Source: a virus
Lineage: Duplodnaviria; Heunggongvirae; Uroviricota; Caudoviricetes
Length of the DNA: 6,274 nt
IMG/VR virus record: IMGVR_UViG_2703718849_000001
Coordinates: 1-6,274 of that record
Strand: one strand, 5' to 3'
Shown in pieces: positions 1-6,274 of the stretch. The notes under the pieces are model-generated. The model worked only from the letters and a program-made list of their open reading frames with translations. It did no database searches and was not told where the DNA came from. The position numbers and the translations under genes are program-made. The stretch's first letter is position 1. Each line of letters opens with the position of its first letter.

Positions 1-97
1 ATGGTGTCCCCTGCAGACATCTACTTGAAGCGACAGGGGATTGATTGGAATGGTGTTTTTTAGATGTGAAAAATATTTTACCCGCTATTTTACCCAT
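1..97 (-). CDS. Possible 5' end of an integrase gene (N-terminal fragment running off the left edge)
   Basis: Minus-strand ATG at 97..95 opens a frame (MGKIAGKIFFTSKKHHSNQSPVASSRCLQGTP...) with no stop down to position 1. It overlaps the excisionase stop (92..90) by 8 nt, the usual xis-int arrangement. No clear Shine-Dalgarno; the integrase call is positional inference only. Confidence 0.3.
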   Translation of the reverse strand, partial: MGKIAGKIFFTSKKHHSNQSPVASSRCLQGTP

Positions 98-290
98 TGG
101 CGCGGCTTAAGAGCTTATTTTTGAATTCACAATGGTCACGATATAACCATCTTGCTCGCCCGTGGATAACTTTGGCTTTAGGCAGGTCTCCGGACTTAAT
201 CCGGTCATAGATGAAGGTTTTACCGAAGCCAGTATCGGCCATGATGAATTTCAAATCAACCAGGGAATCAGGCTGTAGTTCGTGTTGCAT
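90..290 (-). CDS. xis: AlpA-family excisionase / prophage DNA-binding regulator (66 aa)
   Basis: ATG at 290..288 with GGAG about 9 nt upstream, TAA at 92..90. The pattern ...LKFIMADTGFGKTFIYDRIKSGDLP...RWLYRD... fits the AlpA/Xis helix-turn-helix family signature as I recall it (TG-x5-IY ... LP ... W). Sits at the distal end of the leftward operon. Confidence 0.7.
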   Translation of the reverse strand: MQHELQPDSLVDLKFIMADTGFGKTFIYDRIKSGDLPKAKVIHGRARWLYRDHCEFKNKLLSRANG

Positions 291-330
291 GAGTGCTATC
301 TCCGAATAGGGAATCGAACCTGCAAATCAG

Positions 331-358
331 GCAATAAAAAACCGCCATCAGGCGGCTT
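331..358 (-). terminator. Rho-independent terminator candidate (minus strand)
   Basis: Stem ccgcc (342-346) / ggcgg (351-355) with 4-nt loop, followed on the minus strand by UUUUUUAUU (plus 333-341). The TGA stop of the small ORF 348..515 lies in the loop. Confidence 0.45.
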
Positions 359-515
359 GGTGTTCTTTCAGTTCTTCAATTCGAATATTGGTTACGTCTG
401 CATGCGCTATCTGCGCCCATATCATCCAGTGGTTATAGCAGTCGTTGATGTCCTCTGCTTCGATAACTCTGTTGAATGGTTCTCCATTCCATTCACCTGT
501 GACTCGGAAGTGCAT
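348..515 (-). CDS. Small hypothetical protein (55 aa), below the ORF-track cutoff
   Basis: Hand translation gives MHFRVTGEWNGEPFNRVIEAEDINDCYNHWMIWAQIAHADVTNIRIEELKEHQAA. ATG at 515..513 is preceded by GGAG with 7-nt spacing; TGA at 350..348. It occupies the slot between lar and xis where Rac carries ydaC (order recalled, not checked). Confidence 0.55.
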   Translation of the reverse strand: MHFRVTGEWNGEPFNRVIEAEDINDCYNHWMIWAQIAHADVTNIRIEELKEHQAA

Positions 516-523
516 TTATCATC

Positions 524-553
524 TCCATAAAACAAAACTCGCCGTAGCGAGTT
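524..553 (-). terminator. Hairpin plus U-tract, terminator candidate (minus strand)
   Basis: Stem aactcgc (536-542) / gcgagtt (547-553), loop cgta; on the minus strand it is followed by UUGUUUUAU, immediately upstream of the SD of the 348..515 ORF. Confidence 0.35.
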
Positions 554-615
554 CAGATAAAAGAAATCCCCGCGAGTGCGAGGATTGTTATTCACCTTTG
601 ACGGCAAGTTGCAGG

Positions 616-918
616 TTAGCCATGGTTAACCTCCTGCGGAGTAGCCTTTACAAGCACTGGTGTAAATCCATCTTCATTAAGGTTATGAATATAGACTTCC
701 GTTCTCCTGCGCTCTTCAGCGTTTAATATGGTTTCTGGATCATAAACCCATACTTTCATTCGACTATTCCATGAAGAAATCGCTTCAGATTTAGTTCGTT
801 TTTCTGGTCCTTGGGCACCACATTTGCATGACACATAGCGCATTTTCCCTCTGATACTGAATGAGTATCCGATGTTAAGCACAGTGGAACCACAGAATGG
901 GCAGCGATATAGATTCAT
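616..918 (-). CDS. lar: Lar-family restriction-alleviation protein (zinc ribbon), 100 aa
   Basis: ATG at 918..916 with AAGGTGG about 8 nt upstream, overlapping the upstream gene's TGA (ATGA). N-terminal CPFCG ... CKCGA two-CxxC motif and ISSWNSR match the Lar family as I recall it. Confidence 0.65.
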   Translation of the reverse strand: MNLYRCPFCGSTVLNIGYSFSIRGKMRYVSCKCGAQGPEKRTKSEAISSWNSRMKVWVYDPETILNAEERRRTEVYIHNLNEDGFTPVLVKATPQEVNHG

Positions 919-1511
919 AAATCATCCACCTTAGGCGCAGCTGAGACAGCAACATTCCAGAACTCAGAAAACATATTGTATGCACCAGATAGATTGGAAG
1001 TGGCATACCCTCCAAGCTCACTTCTAATCTGAACGGCTCTCATCATTTCCGGGGTTAACTCCTTCGGCACCATAACCCAACCATCCGGAATTACCGGAGA
1101 GTTGCCGGGTTCTTTAATGTGCAAGCGAGGCTCACCATCTTTTGGCTCAGGCCACTGGCGCTCCATGTTGATCTTCAATTTATCTTCCATAGCAGCGGTA
1201 ATTTCAGCATCGCTGATGCAAGCACGGCGCTGTGCATCCCACAACAGAAACTGCATATCAGCCCACTCGCTAAGATCGTCTGGTTCGGCTGCGGCTTCCA
1301 GTGCCTCTTTTGAGAGATGTTTCAGCGGACCAATGGGGCCAACGCAGCCAAATGTGGAGTCAGACCATTTGGCATGCTCGTGGCGAATCTGTTCGCGTTC
1401 CAGTGATGCCAGTGCAATCCGTGCCAGTTCCATTTGTTCGCCACGGGTAAGCCCGTTATCAAGCGGATTTTTAATGAATAATTCGATACGTTCTTTGGTA
1501 ATAGTGGTCAT
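915..1511 (-). CDS. Hypothetical phage protein (198 aa), acidic
   Basis: ATG at 1511..1509 with AAGGTGA SD at 9-nt spacing; long uninterrupted ORF; stop overlaps the lar start. No family recognised. Confidence 0.75.
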   Translation of the reverse strand: MTTITKERIELFIKNPLDNGLTRGEQMELARIALASLEREQIRHEHAKWSDSTFGCVGPIGPLKHLSKEALEAAAEPDDLSEWADMQFLLWDAQRRACISDAEITAAMEDKLKINMERQWPEPKDGEPRLHIKEPGNSPVIPDGWVMVPKELTPEMMRAVQIRSELGGYATSNLSGAYNMFSEFWNVAVSAAPKVDDL

Positions 1512-1513
1512 AG

Positions 1514-1705
1514 CTATTTCACCTTAATCTCAACATTTCGCAGCTTTAGCTCTACTGGCAGGTCTGACTTTCCTGTTAATGCTAATGCGAGATTTTCTGG
1601 GGTAATGAGAGCAGTTATTGCTTTCCCCATTGCCAGACGAATAATTATTCGTATTTCGCGATCGTCACATGCTCCTGGTAGAACGATTGATATTTGTCCG
1701 TCCAT
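1514..1705 (-). CDS. Hypothetical small protein (63 aa)
   Basis: ATG at 1705..1703 preceded by AGGAG (6-nt spacing) inside the end of the upstream gene; 1 nt separates the upstream TGA from this ATG, and its own TAG is 2 nt from the next ATG. Confidence 0.6.
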   Translation of the reverse strand: MDGQISIVLPGACDDREIRIIIRLAMGKAITALITPENLALALTGKSDLPVELKLRNVEIKVK

Positions 1706-1706
1706 C

Positions 1707-2114
1707 TCACTCTCCTTTGATGCGAATGCCTGCGGCGCGGATTGCAGCGATGACTTCAGAAACTTTGTATGCCATTACCGTTTGGTAATCATCGTGAAAA
1801 TCTGTTCGATGAAGCATGCTGCTACGTTCCGGGAGCGATATTTCCCGCGCTTCCAGTTCTGCAATGCGCTTTTTTGCTGCTTCCAGTTCATCCAGTAATT
1901 CCAGTACGGTAGCCGGATTAGCCTTGGCAACAAAATCCCGGACTGGCTTACAATCAATCTCCGCAATGGGTTGATACGATGTGTAGCCATGCTGTCTTGT
2001 ATAACTACCGTGACGAATAACAAAAAAATCACCATTTATTTTTTTAGCCTGCCACTTATCTTCACCGGCTTTCTCTGCCGCTTCACGCAGTGCCTGATAG
2101 TCAATCTTGTTCAT
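1707..2114 (-). CDS. Ead/Ea22-like family protein (135 aa)
   Basis: ATG at 2114..2112 with GGTGA SD. Central coiled-coil segment ATVLELLDELEAAKKRIAELEAR resembles the ead/Ea22-like proteins of lambdoid early-left regions (recollection). Confidence 0.7.
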   Translation of the reverse strand: MNKIDYQALREAAEKAGEDKWQAKKINGDFFVIRHGSYTRQHGYTSYQPIAEIDCKPVRDFVAKANPATVLELLDELEAAKKRIAELEAREISLPERSSMLHRTDFHDDYQTVMAYKVSEVIAAIRAAGIRIKGE

Positions 2115-2115
2115 G

Positions 2116-2415
2116 TCACATCACCCTGAATCCGTTGCATTTACGTAAGAAATCGCAGATATAGCCCTTCATTTTTTCATGACAATCTCGATCATTCCCA
2201 TTGCACCAACCATCAGGTGGAGTCCAGTTTTCTATCAGAGCAGCCATTTTCTTTGCTTTCGCCGGAGTAGCTGTTGCGGTATCGCAGTAATGACGAGTGT
2301 CAACCAACGCATCCATACCATCGATATCAAGTACGCAAAACCATGTGTGATTCGGAATTCCTACAGGTGGTATTTGTTGCCCACGTCGACGTTTATCAAT
2401 AAGATATACACTCAC
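2116..2415 (-). CDS. Hypothetical Cys-rich protein (99 aa from GTG)
   Basis: The ORF-track frame 2116..2436 begins with GTG at 2436; a second in-frame GTG at 2415..2413 is preceded by a perfect AGGAGG (2427..2422) with 6-nt spacing and overlaps the TGA of the upstream 55-aa ORF (GTGA). C-terminal C-x7-C-x9-C-x6-C spacing. Confidence 0.6.
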
Positions 2416-2579
2416 TGCTTGCCTCCTTTGCGCCACATCGCATTCAGATATTTGTTTTGATTTACTGACGGAAAAGAATTTCTCTTAAGCAATTCCTCTC
2501 TCGATGGCATTGGCTTTACGCGTTGGCGAATAATCATTTCTGCCGGAAGAATGCCGGGGTTGTATGCAAGTCCTCTCAT
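2412..2579 (-). CDS. Small hypothetical protein (55 aa), below the ORF-track cutoff
   Basis: Hand translation gives [58 protein letters not shown] at 2579..2577 overlaps the TGA of the upstream gene (ATGA) and has GGAG 6 nt upstream; its own TGA overlaps the downstream GTG start. It fills an otherwise empty 160-nt gap exactly. Confidence 0.5.
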
Positions 2580-2866
2580 GATTTACTCTCCACGAACTGG
2601 TCAATAGCCATGCTAAGTGACATACCTAAAGTCTCGATATGCTGCTGAATATCCTGTAGCGTCTGCGCCTGAGATAACAGGATTTCACGGTTGCATAACT
2701 CTTTAACCAGATGCTCAAACTTGCTGTAATAACCGATACGGCTTAGTGTTTCTTTCCCTGCATTCTCGCCTTCTTTGATAATTCCTCTTTCGCTAAGAAT
2801 CAGATCGTGTTTTGTTCCGGTAATAACGTATTTTCCGAGGTCGATGTTTAGCTTCATTGTTTTCAT
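2576..2866 (-). CDS. Hypothetical protein (96 aa)
   Basis: The 146-aa track ORF starts at TTG inside the upstream gene. The ATG at 2866..2864 ([14 protein letters not shown]...) lies 10 nt past the upstream TGA with GAGGA SD at 7-nt spacing, so the gene is trimmed to 2576..2866. Confidence 0.65.
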
Positions 2867-2876
2867 TGTTAATTCC

Positions 2877-3170
2877 TCAGTCATTACTGATAGCGCCATA
2901 GCGTGAGCGGTAATTACGCAGGCGCGGGTCGATTTCAGGGAAGTGGGTATATGTGGCTTTGCGGAATGGTCGGATTGATGTCTGGTAAATTCGCTCTCGT
3001 TCTTCTTTCTCTGCAAGCCATATGCAGTGGCGAAACTCCTTTTCCTCTTTCGTTTCCTGCGGTAGAGACATTATTCGATCGTAGTTTTTTCTGAATTTAT
3101 CCAGCACCTCCGATACGGAATTGCCGGAACAGCGGCGCGCGTCATCCGCACCATACAGAGGCGCTGGCAT
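2877..3170 (-). CDS. Hypothetical protein (97 aa), basic
   Basis: ATG at 3170..3168 with AAGGA SD about 8 nt upstream; TGA at 2879..2877. No family recognised. Confidence 0.65.
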   Translation of the reverse strand: MPAPLYGADDARRCSGNSVSEVLDKFRKNYDRIMSLPQETKEEKEFRHCIWLAEKEERERIYQTSIRPFRKATYTHFPEIDPRLRNYRSRYGAISND

Positions 3171-3193
3171 AATTAAATCCTTATTTTTCTAAA

Positions 3194-3577
3194 TCAGAAT
3201 GGGATGGAATCGTCGTATACAGGAGTGTTCTGCTGGTTACTACTTTGCTGCTGCGGGCCATTTCCTGAAGCTGCAAATCCAATCTTTGCATTCAGTAATT
3301 CAAGAGTGATTGATTGACAATTTTGCCCCTGATAAACATCAACCCTGATGTTTTCTCCGGTAATTTCCACAATGCCACCTTCAACAAGAACACTACGGTA
3401 GTAATCCGCTTGCGCTCCCGGCTTGGCAAATACAACGGCGCTGTAGTTTGTCCATTCTTTCTTTTTTGTCTGGCGATCGTAATGCTGAACTCCAGCACGG
3501 ATGTTGAATCCGATATTTTCCCCGGCCTGAAACTCTCTTGCGGGCTTGTTTAGTCTTACAGTAATCGAATGTGCCAT
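3194..3577 (-). CDS. ssb: Phage SSB-like single-stranded DNA-binding protein (127 aa) with acidic C-terminal tip
   Basis: C-terminus ...NTPVYDDSIPF matches the conserved SSB tail (E. coli SSB ends DDDIPF), preceded by a Gln/Ser-rich linker. The ATG at 3577..3575 (MAHSITV...) overlaps the Erf TAA (TAATG); the track's 157-aa version is an out-of-frame upstream extension. Confidence 0.75.
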   Translation of the reverse strand: MAHSITVRLNKPAREFQAGENIGFNIRAGVQHYDRQTKKKEWTNYSAVVFAKPGAQADYYRSVLVEGGIVEITGENIRVDVYQGQNCQSITLELLNAKIGFAASGNGPQQQSSNQQNTPVYDDSIPF

Positions 3578-4182
3578 TAAGCAGCAGCTCCTTCTAATTC
3601 GTCTCGTCTGATGTTGTAAACGTCCTGCGCTTTGTGCTGCTCCGGTGTGCCTTCGAGCATCTTCCACGCTTTGGCGAACGCCTGTTTAAGCTCTTCTACG
3701 GTGTTTTTCTGCATTGCTGCGTCAGTGAATGCTTTTAGAACCTGTTCAGGTGTAGGTAATGGTTTTGATTGCTTTGCTGCTGCGTTCTGCTGATGTTTAT
3801 GCTCGTCGGTATCTGCATCTTTCGCATCATCAATGCCGAATAAACCATTGAGGCAATACTTGCGTGCATAAGAGCTTGTAGCTCCCGTAACTTGTGCAGA
3901 ATCCATTCCTTTCTTGCTTTCTTCCTCTCGTGCAAGAGCGGTTGCTTTATGACTGTTTTCGCCATCAGTAATAGTTGCCGTTGCTTTCACGTAATACCGA
4001 TCACCAATCAACACAACTTCATCGCTGATTGATAAAAACAGGCCATTCAGTAACGGCTTAACACCCTCAAGAATGTCTTCGCAGCTTCTGTATTTATATT
4101 TGCCGAATGAGTTGTATTGATTCTTTGGCGCGTTCAGATTCTCCTGAATAGCTGCCAGCCTTGCGTAAAATTCTTTGCTCAT
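3577..4182 (-). CDS. erf: Erf-family single-strand annealing recombinase (201 aa)
   Basis: From the ATG at 4182..4180 the protein begins MSKEFYARLAAIQENLNAPKNQYNSFGKYKYRSCEDILEGVKPLL..., which matches my recollection of P22 Erf. The track's start is a TTG at 4212, 10 codons upstream. TAA overlaps the ssb start. Confidence 0.8.
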   Translation of the reverse strand: MSKEFYARLAAIQENLNAPKNQYNSFGKYKYRSCEDILEGVKPLLNGLFLSISDEVVLIGDRYYVKATATITDGENSHKATALAREEESKKGMDSAQVTGATSSYARKYCLNGLFGIDDAKDADTDEHKHQQNAAAKQSKPLPTPEQVLKAFTDAAMQKNTVEELKQAFAKAWKMLEGTPEQHKAQDVYNIRRDELEGAAA

Positions 4183-4283
4183 ATGTTTGTTCTCAGAATG
4201 GACATTCCCCAAGGAAATAACGCTGATTTAATACTTCGACTCGGGACAAATTAAGGCATACCCGCATTCCTTCGCGGTCGCCA

Positions 4284-4442
4284 TTATGGCGATGCCAGAG
4301 AGCTTTCTGCGTGTACATGCGTCTCTGTAACTTGCTCTCCTTCACTGTGGTTGCAAGTGACATGAATATCTCCTTCGTTACCGATTAATTCTTTCATCTG
4401 ACGAATGAATTCTTCGTCTGACCAGTTATCTGTAAAACTCAT
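4284..4442 (-). CDS. Small acidic hypothetical peptide (52 aa) between kil and erf
   Basis: Hand translation gives MSFTDNWSDEEFIRQMKELIGNEGDIHVTCNHSEGEQVTETHVHAESSLASP. ATG at 4442..4440 overlaps the kil TGA (ATGA); TAA at 4286..4284. No SD beyond the coupling; function unknown. Confidence 0.4.
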   Translation of the reverse strand: MSFTDNWSDEEFIRQMKELIGNEGDIHVTCNHSEGEQVTETHVHAESSLASP

Positions 4443-4591
4443 TTCCTGCGATACCACGGAAGGTTGATAGCTGATTTCATCGCTTTATTTGCTTCAAGCC
4501 ACATTTTTGAATCACCAATAAATCTGGCTATTACTGCTTTGTTCTGTGCAGCACGAAGCATCTGGTGATTGATGGCTATTTCATTGCGCAT
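4439..4591 (-). CDS. kil: Kil-like host cell-division inhibitor peptide (50 aa)
   Basis: Hand translation gives MRNEIAINHQMLRAAQNKAVIARFIGDSKMWLEANKAMKSAINLPWYRRK. The IA-x-FIGD-x-KM segment and the position directly downstream of, and overlapping, cIII fit lambda Kil as I recall it. GGAGG lies 4 nt upstream of the ATG at 4591. Confidence 0.5.
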   Translation of the reverse strand: MRNEIAINHQMLRAAQNKAVIARFIGDSKMWLEANKAMKSAINLPWYRRK

Positions 4592-4710
4592 AACGCCTCC
4601 AGTTGTTTCTTTGCTGCTCTGATTAATTGTTTAACTCGGCGTGATAATTCAGATTCGTGCGGGTAGAAAGCGGACATGACGCCGCTACCCGCGAGCTGAA
4701 AGTGCATCAT
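4576..4710 (-). CDS. cIII: CIII-like FtsH inhibitor peptide (44 aa)
   Basis: Hand translation gives MMHFQLAGSGVMSAFYPHESELSRRVKQLIRAAKKQLEALCAMK. GGAG lies 6 nt upstream of the ATG at 4710. The N-terminus and the central amphipathic helix ESELSRRVKQLIR align with lambda CIII (MQYAIAG...ESLLERITRKLRD, from memory). Confidence 0.6.
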   Translation of the reverse strand: MMHFQLAGSGVMSAFYPHESELSRRVKQLIRAAKKQLEALCAMK

Positions 4711-4740
4711 GGGTAACTCCTTATATTTGATTGCATAACG

Positions 4741-4765
4741 AAAACGCCTCAAGTGAAGCGTTATT
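4741..4765 (-). terminator. Hairpin plus U-tract, terminator candidate (minus strand) between ea10 and cIII
   Basis: Minus-strand RNA forms an 8-bp stem AACGCUUC / GAGGCGUU (one G-U wobble), loop ACUU, followed by UUCGUUAU. The plus-strand RNA would have a mismatch instead, so the structure is strand-specific. Confidence 0.35.
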
Positions 4766-4785
4766 GGTATGCGGTAAAGCCGCGC

Positions 4786-5154
4786 TCAGGCGGCTTTGAT
4801 AGTCATATCATCTGAATCAAATATTCCTGATGTATCGATATCGGTAATTCTTATTCCTTCACTACCATCCATTGGAGGCCATCCTTCCTGACCATTTCCA
4901 TCATCCCAGTCGAACTCACAAACAACACCATATGCATTTAAGTCTTTCGAAATTGCTATAAGCAGAGCATGTTGCGCCAGCATGATTAATACAGCATTTA
5001 ATACAGCGCCGTGTTTATTGAGTCGGTATTCAGAGTCTGACCAGAAATTATTAATCTGGTGAAGTTTTTCCTCTGTCATTACGTCATGGTCGATTTCAAT
5101 TTCTATTGATGCTTTCCAGTCGTAATCAATGATGTATTTTTTGATGTTTGACAT
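4786..5154 (-). CDS. ea10: Ea10-like early-left protein (122 aa)
   Basis: ATG at 5154..5152 with GAGGA SD at 9-nt spacing; 122 aa, the size and position of lambda Ea10 between ral and cIII. Sequence identity to Ea10 is recollection only. Confidence 0.6.
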   Translation of the reverse strand: MSNIKKYIIDYDWKASIEIEIDHDVMTEEKLHQINNFWSDSEYRLNKHGAVLNAVLIMLAQHALLIAISKDLNAYGVVCEFDWDDGNGQEGWPPMDGSEGIRITDIDTSGIFDSDDMTIKAA

Positions 5155-5171
5155 CTATTCATATCCTCATA

Positions 5172-5200
5172 GATAAAAAATCGCCCTCACACTGGAGGGC
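5172..5200 (-). terminator. Rho-independent terminator candidate (minus strand) upstream of ea10
   Basis: Minus-strand stem GCCCUC / GAGGGC (plus 5183-5188 / 5195-5200), 6-nt loop, followed by GAUUUUUUAUCU. The plus-strand downstream flank is A/G-rich, so it is orientation-specific. Confidence 0.5.
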
Positions 5201-5295
5201 AAAGAAGATTTCCAATAATCAGAACAAGTCGGCTCCTGTTTAGTTACGAGCGACATTGCTCCGTGTATTCACTCGTTGGAATGAATACACAGTGC

Positions 5296-5508
5296 TTATT
5301 CGCGAGCTTTGAGCATGGCATCAGCAATAAAGTAGGCATCATCTGCTAATTCTTTGTACTGTGGTGAATTCTGTCCACCGCCAAAGGAATGTCCGTCCCA
5401 TCTGCGCACTATTGCTGCCATAGCCTTAGCAGCGAAGTAATCACGTAATGTCGCATCACTTGCCATTTCTGGGCGTTTGATATCTGCTTCATAAAACTCG
5501 CACATCAT
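5296..5508 (-). CDS. Hypothetical protein (70 aa)
   Basis: Tandem ATG ATG at 5508..5503 preceded by GGAGGTGA; the first ATG overlaps the TGA of the upstream 44-aa ORF (ATGA). No family recognised. Confidence 0.6.
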   Translation of the reverse strand: MMCEFYEADIKRPEMASDATLRDYFAAKAMAAIVRRWDGHSFGGGQNSPQYKELADDAYFIADAMLKARE

Positions 5509-5639
5509 TCACCTCCAAGAGCATTTGCAGCCTCTTTTGCTTTGTGAATCCATAGCAGAGCCATGCAGTACACAGCCTTTTCGTCGGCTCCTGTGATATC
5601 TTGCTCTGCCATCCATTTTGTAAATTCAACTGTGTTCAT
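5505..5639 (-). CDS. Small hypothetical protein (44 aa), below the ORF-track cutoff
   Basis: Hand translation gives MNTVEFTKWMAEQDITGADEKAVYCMALLWIHKAKEAANALGGE. ATG at 5639..5637 with GAGGTGA just upstream; TGA overlaps the start of the 70-aa gene. Confidence 0.45.
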   Translation of the reverse strand: MNTVEFTKWMAEQDITGADEKAVYCMALLWIHKAKEAANALGGE

Positions 5640-5660
5640 ATTCACCTCTGTTGTTTATGC

Positions 5661-5688
5661 CAAAAATAAAGGCCACCATCAGGCAGCC
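5661..5688 (-). terminator. Rho-independent terminator candidate (minus strand) immediately after ral
   Basis: Minus-strand RNA: GGCUGCC-UGAU-GGUGGCC (7 bp including two G-U wobbles) followed by UUUAUUUUUGG. The ral TGA (5681..5679) sits in the loop. The plus-strand RNA would have C-A mismatches. Confidence 0.5.
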
Positions 5689-5879
5689 TTGTTATTCTGT
5701 TTACCAAGTTCTCTGGCAATCATTGCCGTCGTTCGTATTGCCCATTTATCGACATATTTCCCATCTTCCATTACATGAAACATTTCTTCAGGCTTAACCA
5801 TGCATTCCGATTGCAGCTTGCATCCATTGCATCGCTTGAATTGTCCACACCATTGATTTGTATCAATAGTCGTAGTCAT
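5679..5879 (-). CDS. ral: Restriction-alleviation protein Ral (66 aa)
   Basis: MTTTIDTNQWCGQFKRCNGCKLQSECMVKPEEMFHVMEDGKYVDKWAIRTTAMIARELGKQNNKAA is near-identical to lambda Ral as I recall it, and of the same length. ATG at 5879..5877. Confidence 0.85.
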   Translation of the reverse strand: MTTTIDTNQWCGQFKRCNGCKLQSECMVKPEEMFHVMEDGKYVDKWAIRTTAMIARELGKQNNKAA

Positions 5880-5949
5880 ACGGATAGTCCTGGTATTGTT
5901 CCATCACATCCTGAGGATGCTCTTCGAACTCTTCAAATTCTTCTTCCAT
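5863..5949 (-). CDS. Orf28-like acidic peptide (28 aa) overlapping the ral start
   Basis: Hand translation gives MEEEFEEFEEHPQDVMEQYQDYPYDYDY. ATG at 5949..5947 with GAGGTGA upstream; TGA at 5865..5863, overlapping ral by 17 nt. This matches the lambda orf28/ral arrangement as I remember it. Confidence 0.35.
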   Translation of the reverse strand: MEEEFEEFEEHPQDVMEQYQDYPYDYDY

Positions 5950-5957
5950 ATCTCACC

Positions 5958-6274
5958 TCAAATAAGTGGTTTGCTGCCTAATTTCATTTTCTGGCGACCA
6001 ACACAAGTCACCCCCATTTCACTGCGTGGCTTGCTGTACCATGTGCGCTGATTCTTGCGCTCAATACGTTGCAGGTTGCTTTCAATCTGTTCGTGGTATT
6101 CAGCCAGCACTGTAAGGTCTATCGGATTCAGTGCGCTTTCTACTCGTGATTTCGGTTTGCGATTCAGCGAGAGAATAGGGCGGTTAACTGGTTTTGCGCT
6201 TACCCCAACCAACAGGGGATTTGCTGCTTTCCATTGAGCCTGTTTCTCTGCGCGACGTTCGCGGCGGCGTGTTT
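5958..6274 (-). CDS. N: Antitermination protein N (5' end truncated by the window edge; about 4 codons missing)
   Basis: The minus-strand frame is open from 6272 down to the stop at 5960..5958: TRRRERRAEKQAQWKAANPLLVGVSAKPVNRPILSLNRKPKSRVESALNPIDLTVLAEYHEQIESNLQRIERKNQRTWYSKP...PLI. The arginine-rich motif and most of the sequence match lambda N (MDAQTRRRERRAEKQAQWKAANPLL...); the C-terminal roughly 25 residues diverge. The track's TTG start at 6212 is an artefact. Confidence 0.9.
   Translation of the reverse strand, partial: TRRRERRAEKQAQWKAANPLLVGVSAKPVNRPILSLNRKPKSRVESALNPIDLTVLAEYHEQIESNLQRIERKNQRTWYSKPRSEMGVTCVGRQKMKLGSKPLI

Follow-up and report, generated by a model that had tools for sequence, protein, structure and literature searches.

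The Erf–SSB–Abc2 recombination module in the early-left operon of a lambdoid prophage, with a divergent predicted SSB

Recombination modules of related phages and layout of the window

The early-left recombination module of phages HK97 and HK022 was reportedly described by Juhala et al. in 2000. It runs abc2 – gene 40 – erf – 42/42.1 – kil – cIII and entered GenBank with the HK97 and HK022 genomes, also in 2000. In 2025 a survey of 325 lambdoid phages in Genome Research sorted Rec modules according to which SSB, nuclease, annealing protein and anti-RecBCD function they combine. It gave the name SSB-1b to HK97 gp40, whose fold is predicted to be SSB-like although its sequence resembles known SSBs little or not at all (PMC12315714). 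In phage lambda the Red genes (gam-bet-exo) lie between kil and the b-region genes. P22 carries arf-erf-abc1-abc2, Sf6 and HK75 carry gp30-gp29-erf-ssb-(HNH)-abc2, and HK620 carries hkaM-sak4-ssb-abc2, in which the tail of the SSB, through its last six residues, is required for stimulation of the phage's own recombinase (PMC5928155).

The window analysed here is a 6,274-nucleotide stretch (positions 1 to 6,274 of IMG/VR record IMGVR_UViG_2703718849_000001), and all of its credible genes are on the − strand. Reading leftward from the high-coordinate end, these are N (truncated at the window edge), ral, two small ORFs, ea10 (DUF2528), cIII and kil, followed by two overlapping small ORFs (here ORF A and ORF B) and ORFs of 201, 127 and 97 aa. 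Past the 97-aa ORF lie b-region genes encoding DUF5405/P2-Orf83-like, DUF2737, Ead/Ea22-like and Lar-like proteins and a TorI/HkaC-type excisionase. The window is thus the PL early-left operon of a lambdoid prophage. From kil onwards the − strand order is kil, ORF A (Gp33-like), ORF B (HkaM-like), erf, ssb (gp40 or ‘SSB-1b’ type) and abc2 (Table 1), and the initial annotation had placed the 201-aa and 127-aa ORFs exactly. The segment 3194–4182 is, with high confidence, the Rec (recombination) module of an HK97/HK022-type lambdoid prophage, read leftward from PL within the N-antiterminated early-left operon. No Chi site is present in the window, which is uninformative because only 0.12 are expected by chance.

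Table 1. Coordinates of the recombination module, its neighbours and the mosaic segments within the window
Feature	Coordinates	Strand	Basis
abc2, 97-aa anti-RecBCD protein 2	2877..3170	−	Pfam PF11043, PHROG 656
ssb, HK97 gp40 type ‘SSB-1b’, 127-aa divergent single-strand DNA-binding protein (predicted)	3194..3577	−	
erf, 201-aa Erf single-strand annealing protein	3577..4182	−	Pfam PF04404, PHROG 155
ORF B, 56-aa basic protein (Sf6 gp29 / HK97 gp42 C-terminal part)	4193..4363	−	PHROG 1723
ORF A, 52-aa acidic peptide (Gp33 / Sf6 gp30 / HK97 gp42.1 N-terminal part)	4284..4442	−	PHROG 2123
kil, HK97 allele	4439..4591	−	Pfam Lambda_Kil E=1.7e-20
cIII, HK97 allele	4576..4710	−	Pfam cIII E=4.1e-30
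Continuous HK97-type DNA block (abc2, ssb, erf, ORF B/A, kil, cIII)	2863..4772		blastn
Mosaic junction, 39 bp common to the HK97-type and lambda-type ea10 blocks	4734..4772		HK97 match ends 4772, lambda match starts 4734
Terminator-like hairpin inside the junction	4743..4762	−	
Lambda-type DNA, ea10	4734..5295		97.5% identity
Lambda-type DNA, ral	5647..5974		97% identity
Lambda-type DNA, N	5983..6274		93.5% identity

The HK97/HK022 module has the same genes in the same order, and the HK97 DNA is 96.7% identical over 1.9 kb. Two small differences in HK97 alter the products: in the deposited gp40 sequence one extra A near the end gives a DDSNPILI terminus, where the window has DDSIPF, and two extra bases fuse ORF A and ORF B, which are separate in the window, into gp42.1. 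In addition, HK97 is without the lambda-type ea10, ral and N genes of the window. The Erf–SSB–Abc2 cassette is therefore an ordinary, already catalogued HK97/HK022 module, with little weight as a discovery, and the arrangement is common. Window positions 2800–4500 are matched over at least 80% of their length in 43 phage records, among them HK022, HK446, HK106, CUS-3, Sf101 and many Stx phages. Among 5426 complete E. coli genomes, the segment comprising ssb and the Erf C-terminal domain is present in 571, and the whole abc2-to-ORF A stretch is present and contiguous in 559 (∼ 10%).

The other systems resemble the window in part. As the initial annotation had recognised, the Erf and SSB pair sits in the slot that lambda gives to gam-bet-exo. 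The lambda Red genes and the window module serve the same task, RecA-independent annealing recombination coupled with neutralisation of RecBCD, but share no homologous genes; the window has a phage SSB and no phage exonuclease, and RecBCD would be modified by Abc2 rather than blocked by Gam. P22 shares with the window the Erf N-terminal domain (92% identical), Abc2 (93%) and a small acidic protein upstream of erf with an SDEEFI motif in common with ORF A. It differs in lacking the HkaM-like ORF B, in its Erf C-terminal domain (only 33% identical) and in having the helix-turn-helix (HTH)-like abc1 in place of an OB-fold SSB. HK620 has, like the window, a small protein (HkaM, homologous to ORF B at E=1e-9), a recombinase, a coupled SSB with an acidic aromatic tail, and Abc2; its recombinase, however, is the RecA-like Sak4 rather than Erf. 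Sf6 has the same ORF A/ORF B pair, and Sf6 and HK75 have the same Abc2, whereas their cassette encodes a canonical SSB and a 235-aa Erf-like protein, in which a different annealing domain is joined to a C-terminal domain of P22 type; that of Sf6 also encodes an HNH endonuclease.

Erf and the coupled, predicted SSB

The 201-aa protein matches the Pfam ERF family (PF04404) at E=3.1e-44 (151 bits, where the cutoff is 25) over profile positions 1–142 of 153, and PHROG 155 at E=8e-57. It differs from HK97 Erf at two of its 201 residues. When compared with P22 Erf, 119 of residues 1–130 are identical (92%), and only 17 of the 51 residues from 151 to 201 (33%). By sequence, then, the protein combines a P22-type N-terminal annealing domain with an HK97-type C-terminal domain, in agreement with its initial description as a P22-type Erf. 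The close identity to the P22 N-terminal domain suggests that it would form a ring oligomer, bind ssDNA and anneal complementary strands.

The erf stop codon TAA and the ssb ATG share one base, so that the − strand reads GCTGCTTAATGGCACAT; the TAATG coupling noted in the initial annotation is therefore genuine. The gene after erf in P22 is coupled by the same one-base overlap, and a tight junction between the recombinase and the downstream gene is also found in HK97, in HK620 and in a Leminorella prophage, where a relative of SSB-1b follows a Sak4-like AAA_24 gene. Another equally tightly coupled relative, from a metagenomic phage, follows a member of an ‘exonuclease’ PHROG. These varied upstream partners fit a role for SSB-1b as a general recombinase-companion SSB. 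In one E. coli record, H100, an HK97-type Erf gene is followed directly by abc2 and ssb is absent, and so the SSB may be dispensable for the module.

Next, the relationship of the 127-aa protein to known SSBs was addressed at the sequence level. The protein gave no match in a scan with the Pfam SSB family (PF00436), even at E≤10. Scans of its relatives gave one match among 25 (E=0.095) and one weak match among 40 that took in distant members (E=0.0015). A PDB sequence search returned no match with the single protein and only Rim1 (E=0.065) with the family profile. PHROG 44 (SSB), on the other hand, matches the entire protein at E=3.2e-24. When 1.84 billion proteins were searched exhaustively with the family profile, in an attempt to bridge to the canonical SSBs, only 199 representatives (at 50% identity) came back; the profile thus stayed inside its own family. 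Judged by these searches the family is a small separate branch. Annotation pipelines label the protein ‘hypothetical protein’, as PGAP does, because the Pfam SSB model misses it; genome annotation thus still overlooks this SSB, and there is practical value in correcting it.

An alignment of 25 relatives shows a conserved domain of about 100 residues, then a Q/P/N-rich linker that varies greatly in length, and D-D-x-I-P-F at the C-terminus, a layout that is, as far as the sequences go, the architecture of an SSB. In the window protein these parts correspond to an OB domain at approximately residues 1–103, a Q/N-rich linker and a C-terminal DDSIPF tip. The strict [DE]...[IL]PF C-terminus is present in 17 of 40 relatives, together with several near variants. 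An AlphaFold2 model built on the same alignment has a core pLDDT of ∼ 90 and the strand order β1, β1', β2, β3, helix, β4, hairpin, β5, which is an OB fold of the SSB/PriB type (β1–β3, helix, β4–β5 with a β45 hairpin). Residues 107–127, which carry the linker and the acidic I-P-F tip and end in ...PVYDDSIPF, have pLDDT values below 50 and are disordered in the model. When this model was compared with the PDB using Foldseek, the top 50 matches comprised only bacterial and mitochondrial SSBs and PriB (probability 1.00, best E=3e-5, TM 0.4–0.59). Together with PHROG 44 and the tail, these matches bear out the earlier description of the protein as SSB-like, and both an Erf match for the upstream protein and a predicted OB fold for this one were found. 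For a prediction, the assignment of the fold is solid, and the OB fold, Q-rich linker and DDSIPF tail mark the 127-aa protein as a putative SSB.

A profile–profile comparison (hhalign) of the family with the canonical Sf6 SSB gave E=3e-5 and a probability of 73%. At this probability of only 73%, Y45 aligns with Sf6 SSB Trp55, F50 with the position of E. coli Phe60 and H32/Y33 with Trp41. Y33, Y45 and F50 are invariant or nearly so among the relatives, and the positions with which they align are those that we take, from E. coli SSB, to be the ssDNA-stacking residues of canonical SSBs. The same comparison gave a probability of 0.3% for the HK620 SSB (HkaK), which was accordingly rejected as a relative.

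The predicted domain and tail could also belong to an OB-fold decoy or adaptor that is not primarily an ssDNA coat. The host-like DDSIPF tip would then be a rival of E. coli SSB in binding the partner proteins of the latter (ExoI, RecQ, RecO, PriA and others), shielding phage ssDNA ends or redirecting host enzymes, and Erf would use the host SSB, as it necessarily does in P22. The tip differs little from the host motif and is better conserved than anything else beyond the OB domain, P22 Erf works without any phage SSB, the linker in the window protein is very short (∼ 20 residues), and the family is small and lies outside Pfam SSB. However, the near-invariant aromatic residues lie at or next to the canonical stacking positions in the hhalign alignment, the best structural matches are all true ssDNA binders, and in HK620 the analogous SSB both binds ssDNA and stimulates the recombinase of that phage. 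A decoy is therefore considered unlikely, and the protein is treated below as a putative ssDNA-binding SSB.

Less probable still is a functional equivalence with P22 Abc1, which would make the 127-aa protein an accessory modulator of RecBCD rather than an SSB. The two genes occupy the same coupled slot, with the same one-base overlap of the erf stop, but the proteins show no sequence relationship, and Abc1 is helix-turn-helix-like (PHROG 323 and HTH families) where the window protein has an OB fold and an SSB tail. Abc1 was also considered as a truncated relative of the window protein, both being erf-coupled and Abc1 having 94 residues, like the ‘ssb’ of HF4s. This was rejected because Abc1 is HTH-like and unrelated; the 94-aa HF4s ‘ssb’ is a frameshifted copy.

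Predicted RecBCD control and a proposed model for the module

The 97-aa ORF lies 23 nt downstream of the ssb stop codon, just outside 3194–4182, and encodes a full-length Abc2. It matches Pfam PF11043 at E=5.6e-63 over all of profile positions 1–97 of 97 and PHROG 656 at E=7.7e-55, and 90 of its 97 residues (93%) are identical to P22 Abc2. P22 Abc2 binds RecC and abolishes the response to Chi, and it has been proposed to hijack RecBCD as a resection activity that loads Erf; phages with Abc2 lack an exonuclease of their own (PMC9836394). Moreover, Pro68, which is engaged by the host prolyl isomerase in the RecBCD–Abc2 structure (PMC9836394), is kept in the window protein (...IYQTSIRP68FR...). 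From the identity to P22 Abc2, RecC binding and an altered Chi response would be expected of the window protein too.

The initial annotation had recognised neither Gam nor Abc here, and Pfam and PHROG scans of the window ORFs indeed gave no match to the Gam or Abc1 families; yet the intact abc2, contiguous with the module in 559 E. coli genomes, refutes the view of an Erf and SSB system devoid of RecBCD control, save perhaps for one unknown peptide, and leaves it with next to no likelihood.

That peptide, ORF A, is present between kil and erf and is acidic as first described, with 11 D/E against 2 K/R residues and a pI of 4.4. It is not an orphan, however, and it overlaps a second small gene, ORF B. 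ORF A matches PHROG 2123 at E=3.5e-41, its start overlaps the kil stop (ATGA), and residues 1–45 match HK75 Gp33 without a difference, after which the two diverge (7 remaining residues in ORF A, 11 in Gp33). On sequence grounds it is a member of the HK75/HK446 Gp33, Sf6 gp30 and HK97 gp42.1 family. HK75 Gp33 alone is reported to trigger the toxicity of P2 OLD, as do Gam, T7 gp5.9 and a recB deletion; in a preprint of July 2026 the HK75/HK446 protein, which triggers OLD in the manner of RecBCD inhibitors, was proposed to be a new RecBCD inhibitor or manipulator (bioRxiv 10.64898/2026.07.10.737580). A homologue of the OLD inhibitor Oad2 (HK446 gp27 / HK97 gp37) was not found in the window by tblastn.

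A relationship of ORF A to P22 Arf is marginal: the two share only the 7-residue motif W/F-SDEEFI (BLASTP E=0.013), and HK97 gp42.1 matches the Arf family PHROG 2445 at E=0.069. They agree in position and acidity, and one database relative of ORF A is named ‘accessory recombination function protein’.

ORF B lies in the +1 frame relative to ORF A, with AAGGAG 6 nt ahead of its ATG. It matches PHROG 1723 at E=6e-34 and, in BLASTP, HK620 HkaM with 34% identity over the full length. The gene is largely deleted in HK75 and HK446. In-frame fusions of ORF A with ORF B occur in HK97 and among several database proteins, with the junction at different places; such fusion, at least four independent times in other prophages, suggests that the two may form one working unit. 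A recoding signal joining ORF A to ORF B was looked for and set aside: reading the ORF A end by eye revealed no obvious slippery or +1 motif, and ORF B has its own strong Shine-Dalgarno sequence.

These comparisons allow a tentative further suggestion, which we regard as possible but rather doubtful as a whole. The slot between kil and erf, which is that of Gam in lambda, may provide a second layer of RecBCD or recombination control, comprising an HkaM-like protein and a Gp33-like peptide that is a candidate for mimicking DNA or for manipulating RecBCD alongside Abc2, and the divergent SSB may be a dedicated Erf loader that acts via its host-like tail. The roles given here to ORF A and ORF B are putative.

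A model for the module as a whole can be proposed as follows. The module has no nuclease of its own. By analogy with P22 Abc2, the window protein would bind RecC of the host RecBCD and render the enzyme Chi-blind, turning it into the resection engine for phage recombination, and the acidic ORF A peptide at Gam's position would probably also act on RecBCD. The phage SSB would use its OB domain to coat the 3' single strands released by the Abc2-modified enzyme; the SSB would be made in fixed proportion to Erf, because the ssb ATG overlaps the erf stop. Complementary strands carrying the SSB would next be annealed by rings of Erf. The DDSIPF tip closely resembles that of the host SSB and is likely to be a handle that recruits Erf, probably via the Erf C-terminal domain, and/or the partners of the host SSB, in analogy with the HK620 SSB tail and Sak4. 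This contact between SSB and Erf is purely conjectural. Erf, its cognate SSB and Abc2 would constitute a compact, nuclease-free recombination kit of possible use in recombineering.

Mosaic joints around and within the module

The initial annotation had taken the flanking genes to be lambda-like and had placed a mosaic junction at the recombination genes. For N, ral and ea10 the former is correct (93–97% DNA identity). Kil and CIII are lambda-like at the family level only: their genes gave no blastn or tblastn match to lambda, and the proteins are 100% identical to those of HK97 (44 of 44 residues for CIII). They are HK97 alleles because they belong to the block from abc2 to cIII, which in blastn is 96.7% identical to HK97 over 1913 columns. 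The region is indeed mosaic, but the joint does not lie at the edges of erf and ssb. By blastn, the HK97-type block meets lambda-type DNA in a short shared segment upstream of cIII, between cIII and ea10 (Table 1).

Further joints emerge when the window is compared with Sf6/HK75 and P22. The Sf6/HK75 flanks are 98% identical to the window (2068–3185 and 4192–4593), and since the Sf6 homology ends at 3185 and restarts at 4192, the erf and ssb cassette (3186–4191) has been precisely swapped. P22 DNA matches abc2 at 89% identity and 477 nt from the start of erf at 78%, with no match across 3181–3705. On this alignment the Erf C-terminal domain and the downstream gene have, relative to P22, been replaced together.

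The Erf-like proteins of Sf6 and HK75 carry the P22-type C-terminal domain on an unrelated N-terminal domain, and this domain shuffling identifies the Erf linker as a recurrent recombination point. The idea that the type of Erf C-terminal domain and the type of downstream partner co-vary cleanly was considered but not supported: the P22-type domain occurs with Abc1 and no phage SSB in P22, and with a canonical phage SSB in Sf6 and HK75.

Two overlapping reading frames upstream of erf

Two reading frames precede erf: ORF A encodes an acidic product of 52 aa, and ORF B a basic one of 56 aa. They share 80 nt, which each reads in a different frame, and ORF B is preceded by an AAGGAG of its own. 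In HK97, two extra bases join ORF A and ORF B in frame, and no fewer than three further variants in the databases (proteins P0275, P0280 and P0297) show in-frame fusions as well. The fused proteins are 82-83 aa long and display four different junctions, which implies that the fusions would have arisen through independent indels. In HK75 and HK446 only the last ~15 codons of ORF B remain, the rest being deleted.

ORF B is homologous to HkaM of HK620 (34% identity, E=1e-9), and both proteins end in -PF. In HK620, hkaM is the small gene immediately upstream of sak4. One and the same small protein thus lies ahead of two unrelated recombinases.

A further database protein (P0289, 80 aa) consists of the first ~34 residues of a lambda-type N joined directly to ORF A from Trp7 onward. 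This arrangement implies that some prophages carry a deletion reaching across the entire interval from N to the acidic peptide.

Features of the window and their counterparts
Feature	Window position	Strand	Extent	Counterpart or match
ORF following abc2	2576-2866	-	96 aa, from MKTMKL...	DUF5405; PHROG 154
Erf C-terminal domain	3577-3750		Erf residues ~143-201	compared with Sf6, L001 4313-5020
ORF A + ORF B region	4193-4442	-		HK97, L002 3832-4083
ORF B	4193-4363	-		HkaM of HK620, L014 5754-5942
Insert relative to lambda, ea10-ral	5296-5646	-	351 bp
Small ORF in ea10-ral insert		-	70 aa	PHROG 2201
Small ORF in ea10-ral insert		-	46 aa	PHROG 24660
lambda orf28 and sieB absent, ral-N	5974-5983		~680 bp of lambda

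The Erf C-terminal domain and the ssb gene

The Erf-like proteins of Sf6 and HK75 combine an unrelated N-terminal domain with a C-terminal domain very similar to that of P22 Erf. The Erf of the window has a P22-type N-terminal domain and a divergent C-terminal domain (33% identity). On these comparisons, the C-terminal domain behaves as a separate mobile unit.

The deposited gp40 gene of HK97 (L002 2827-3216) contains a single additional A close to the 3' terminus, so that the product finishes in DDSNPILI and not in the SSB tip DDSIPF. The 94-aa 'ssb' of HF4s, together with the next ORF of 36 aa (L003 1819-2214), represents a frameshifted copy of an HK97 gp40-type gene. The two frame changes reflect either errors in sequencing or alleles that have been inactivated. 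In E. coli NZ_CP128584.1 (~3117794-3117952), a query comprising ssb and the Erf C-terminal domain was matched over the latter part only, and the features beneath the match are an 'ERF family protein' and a 'phage anti-RecBCD protein'; here ssb appears to have been deleted between erf and abc2.

An SSB-1b relative (51% identical) is present in a Leminorella grimontii prophage (L010 3138-4417), where an overlap couples its gene to the AAA_24 / Sak4-like gene lying upstream; a DNA_pol3_theta-like gene lies farther downstream.

Flanking regions

Relative to lambda, the window carries an insert with two small ORFs between ea10 and ral, and lacks the lambda segment between ral and N. In the window, ral adjoins the 3' end of N, the final residues of which differ from those of lambda N.

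At the other flank, the ORF that follows abc2 resembles Sf6 gp24 and P2 Orf83. Its PHROG match is labelled 'replication initiation protein', and its alternative listing, at 146 aa, counts from a TTG farther upstream, in overlap with abc2.
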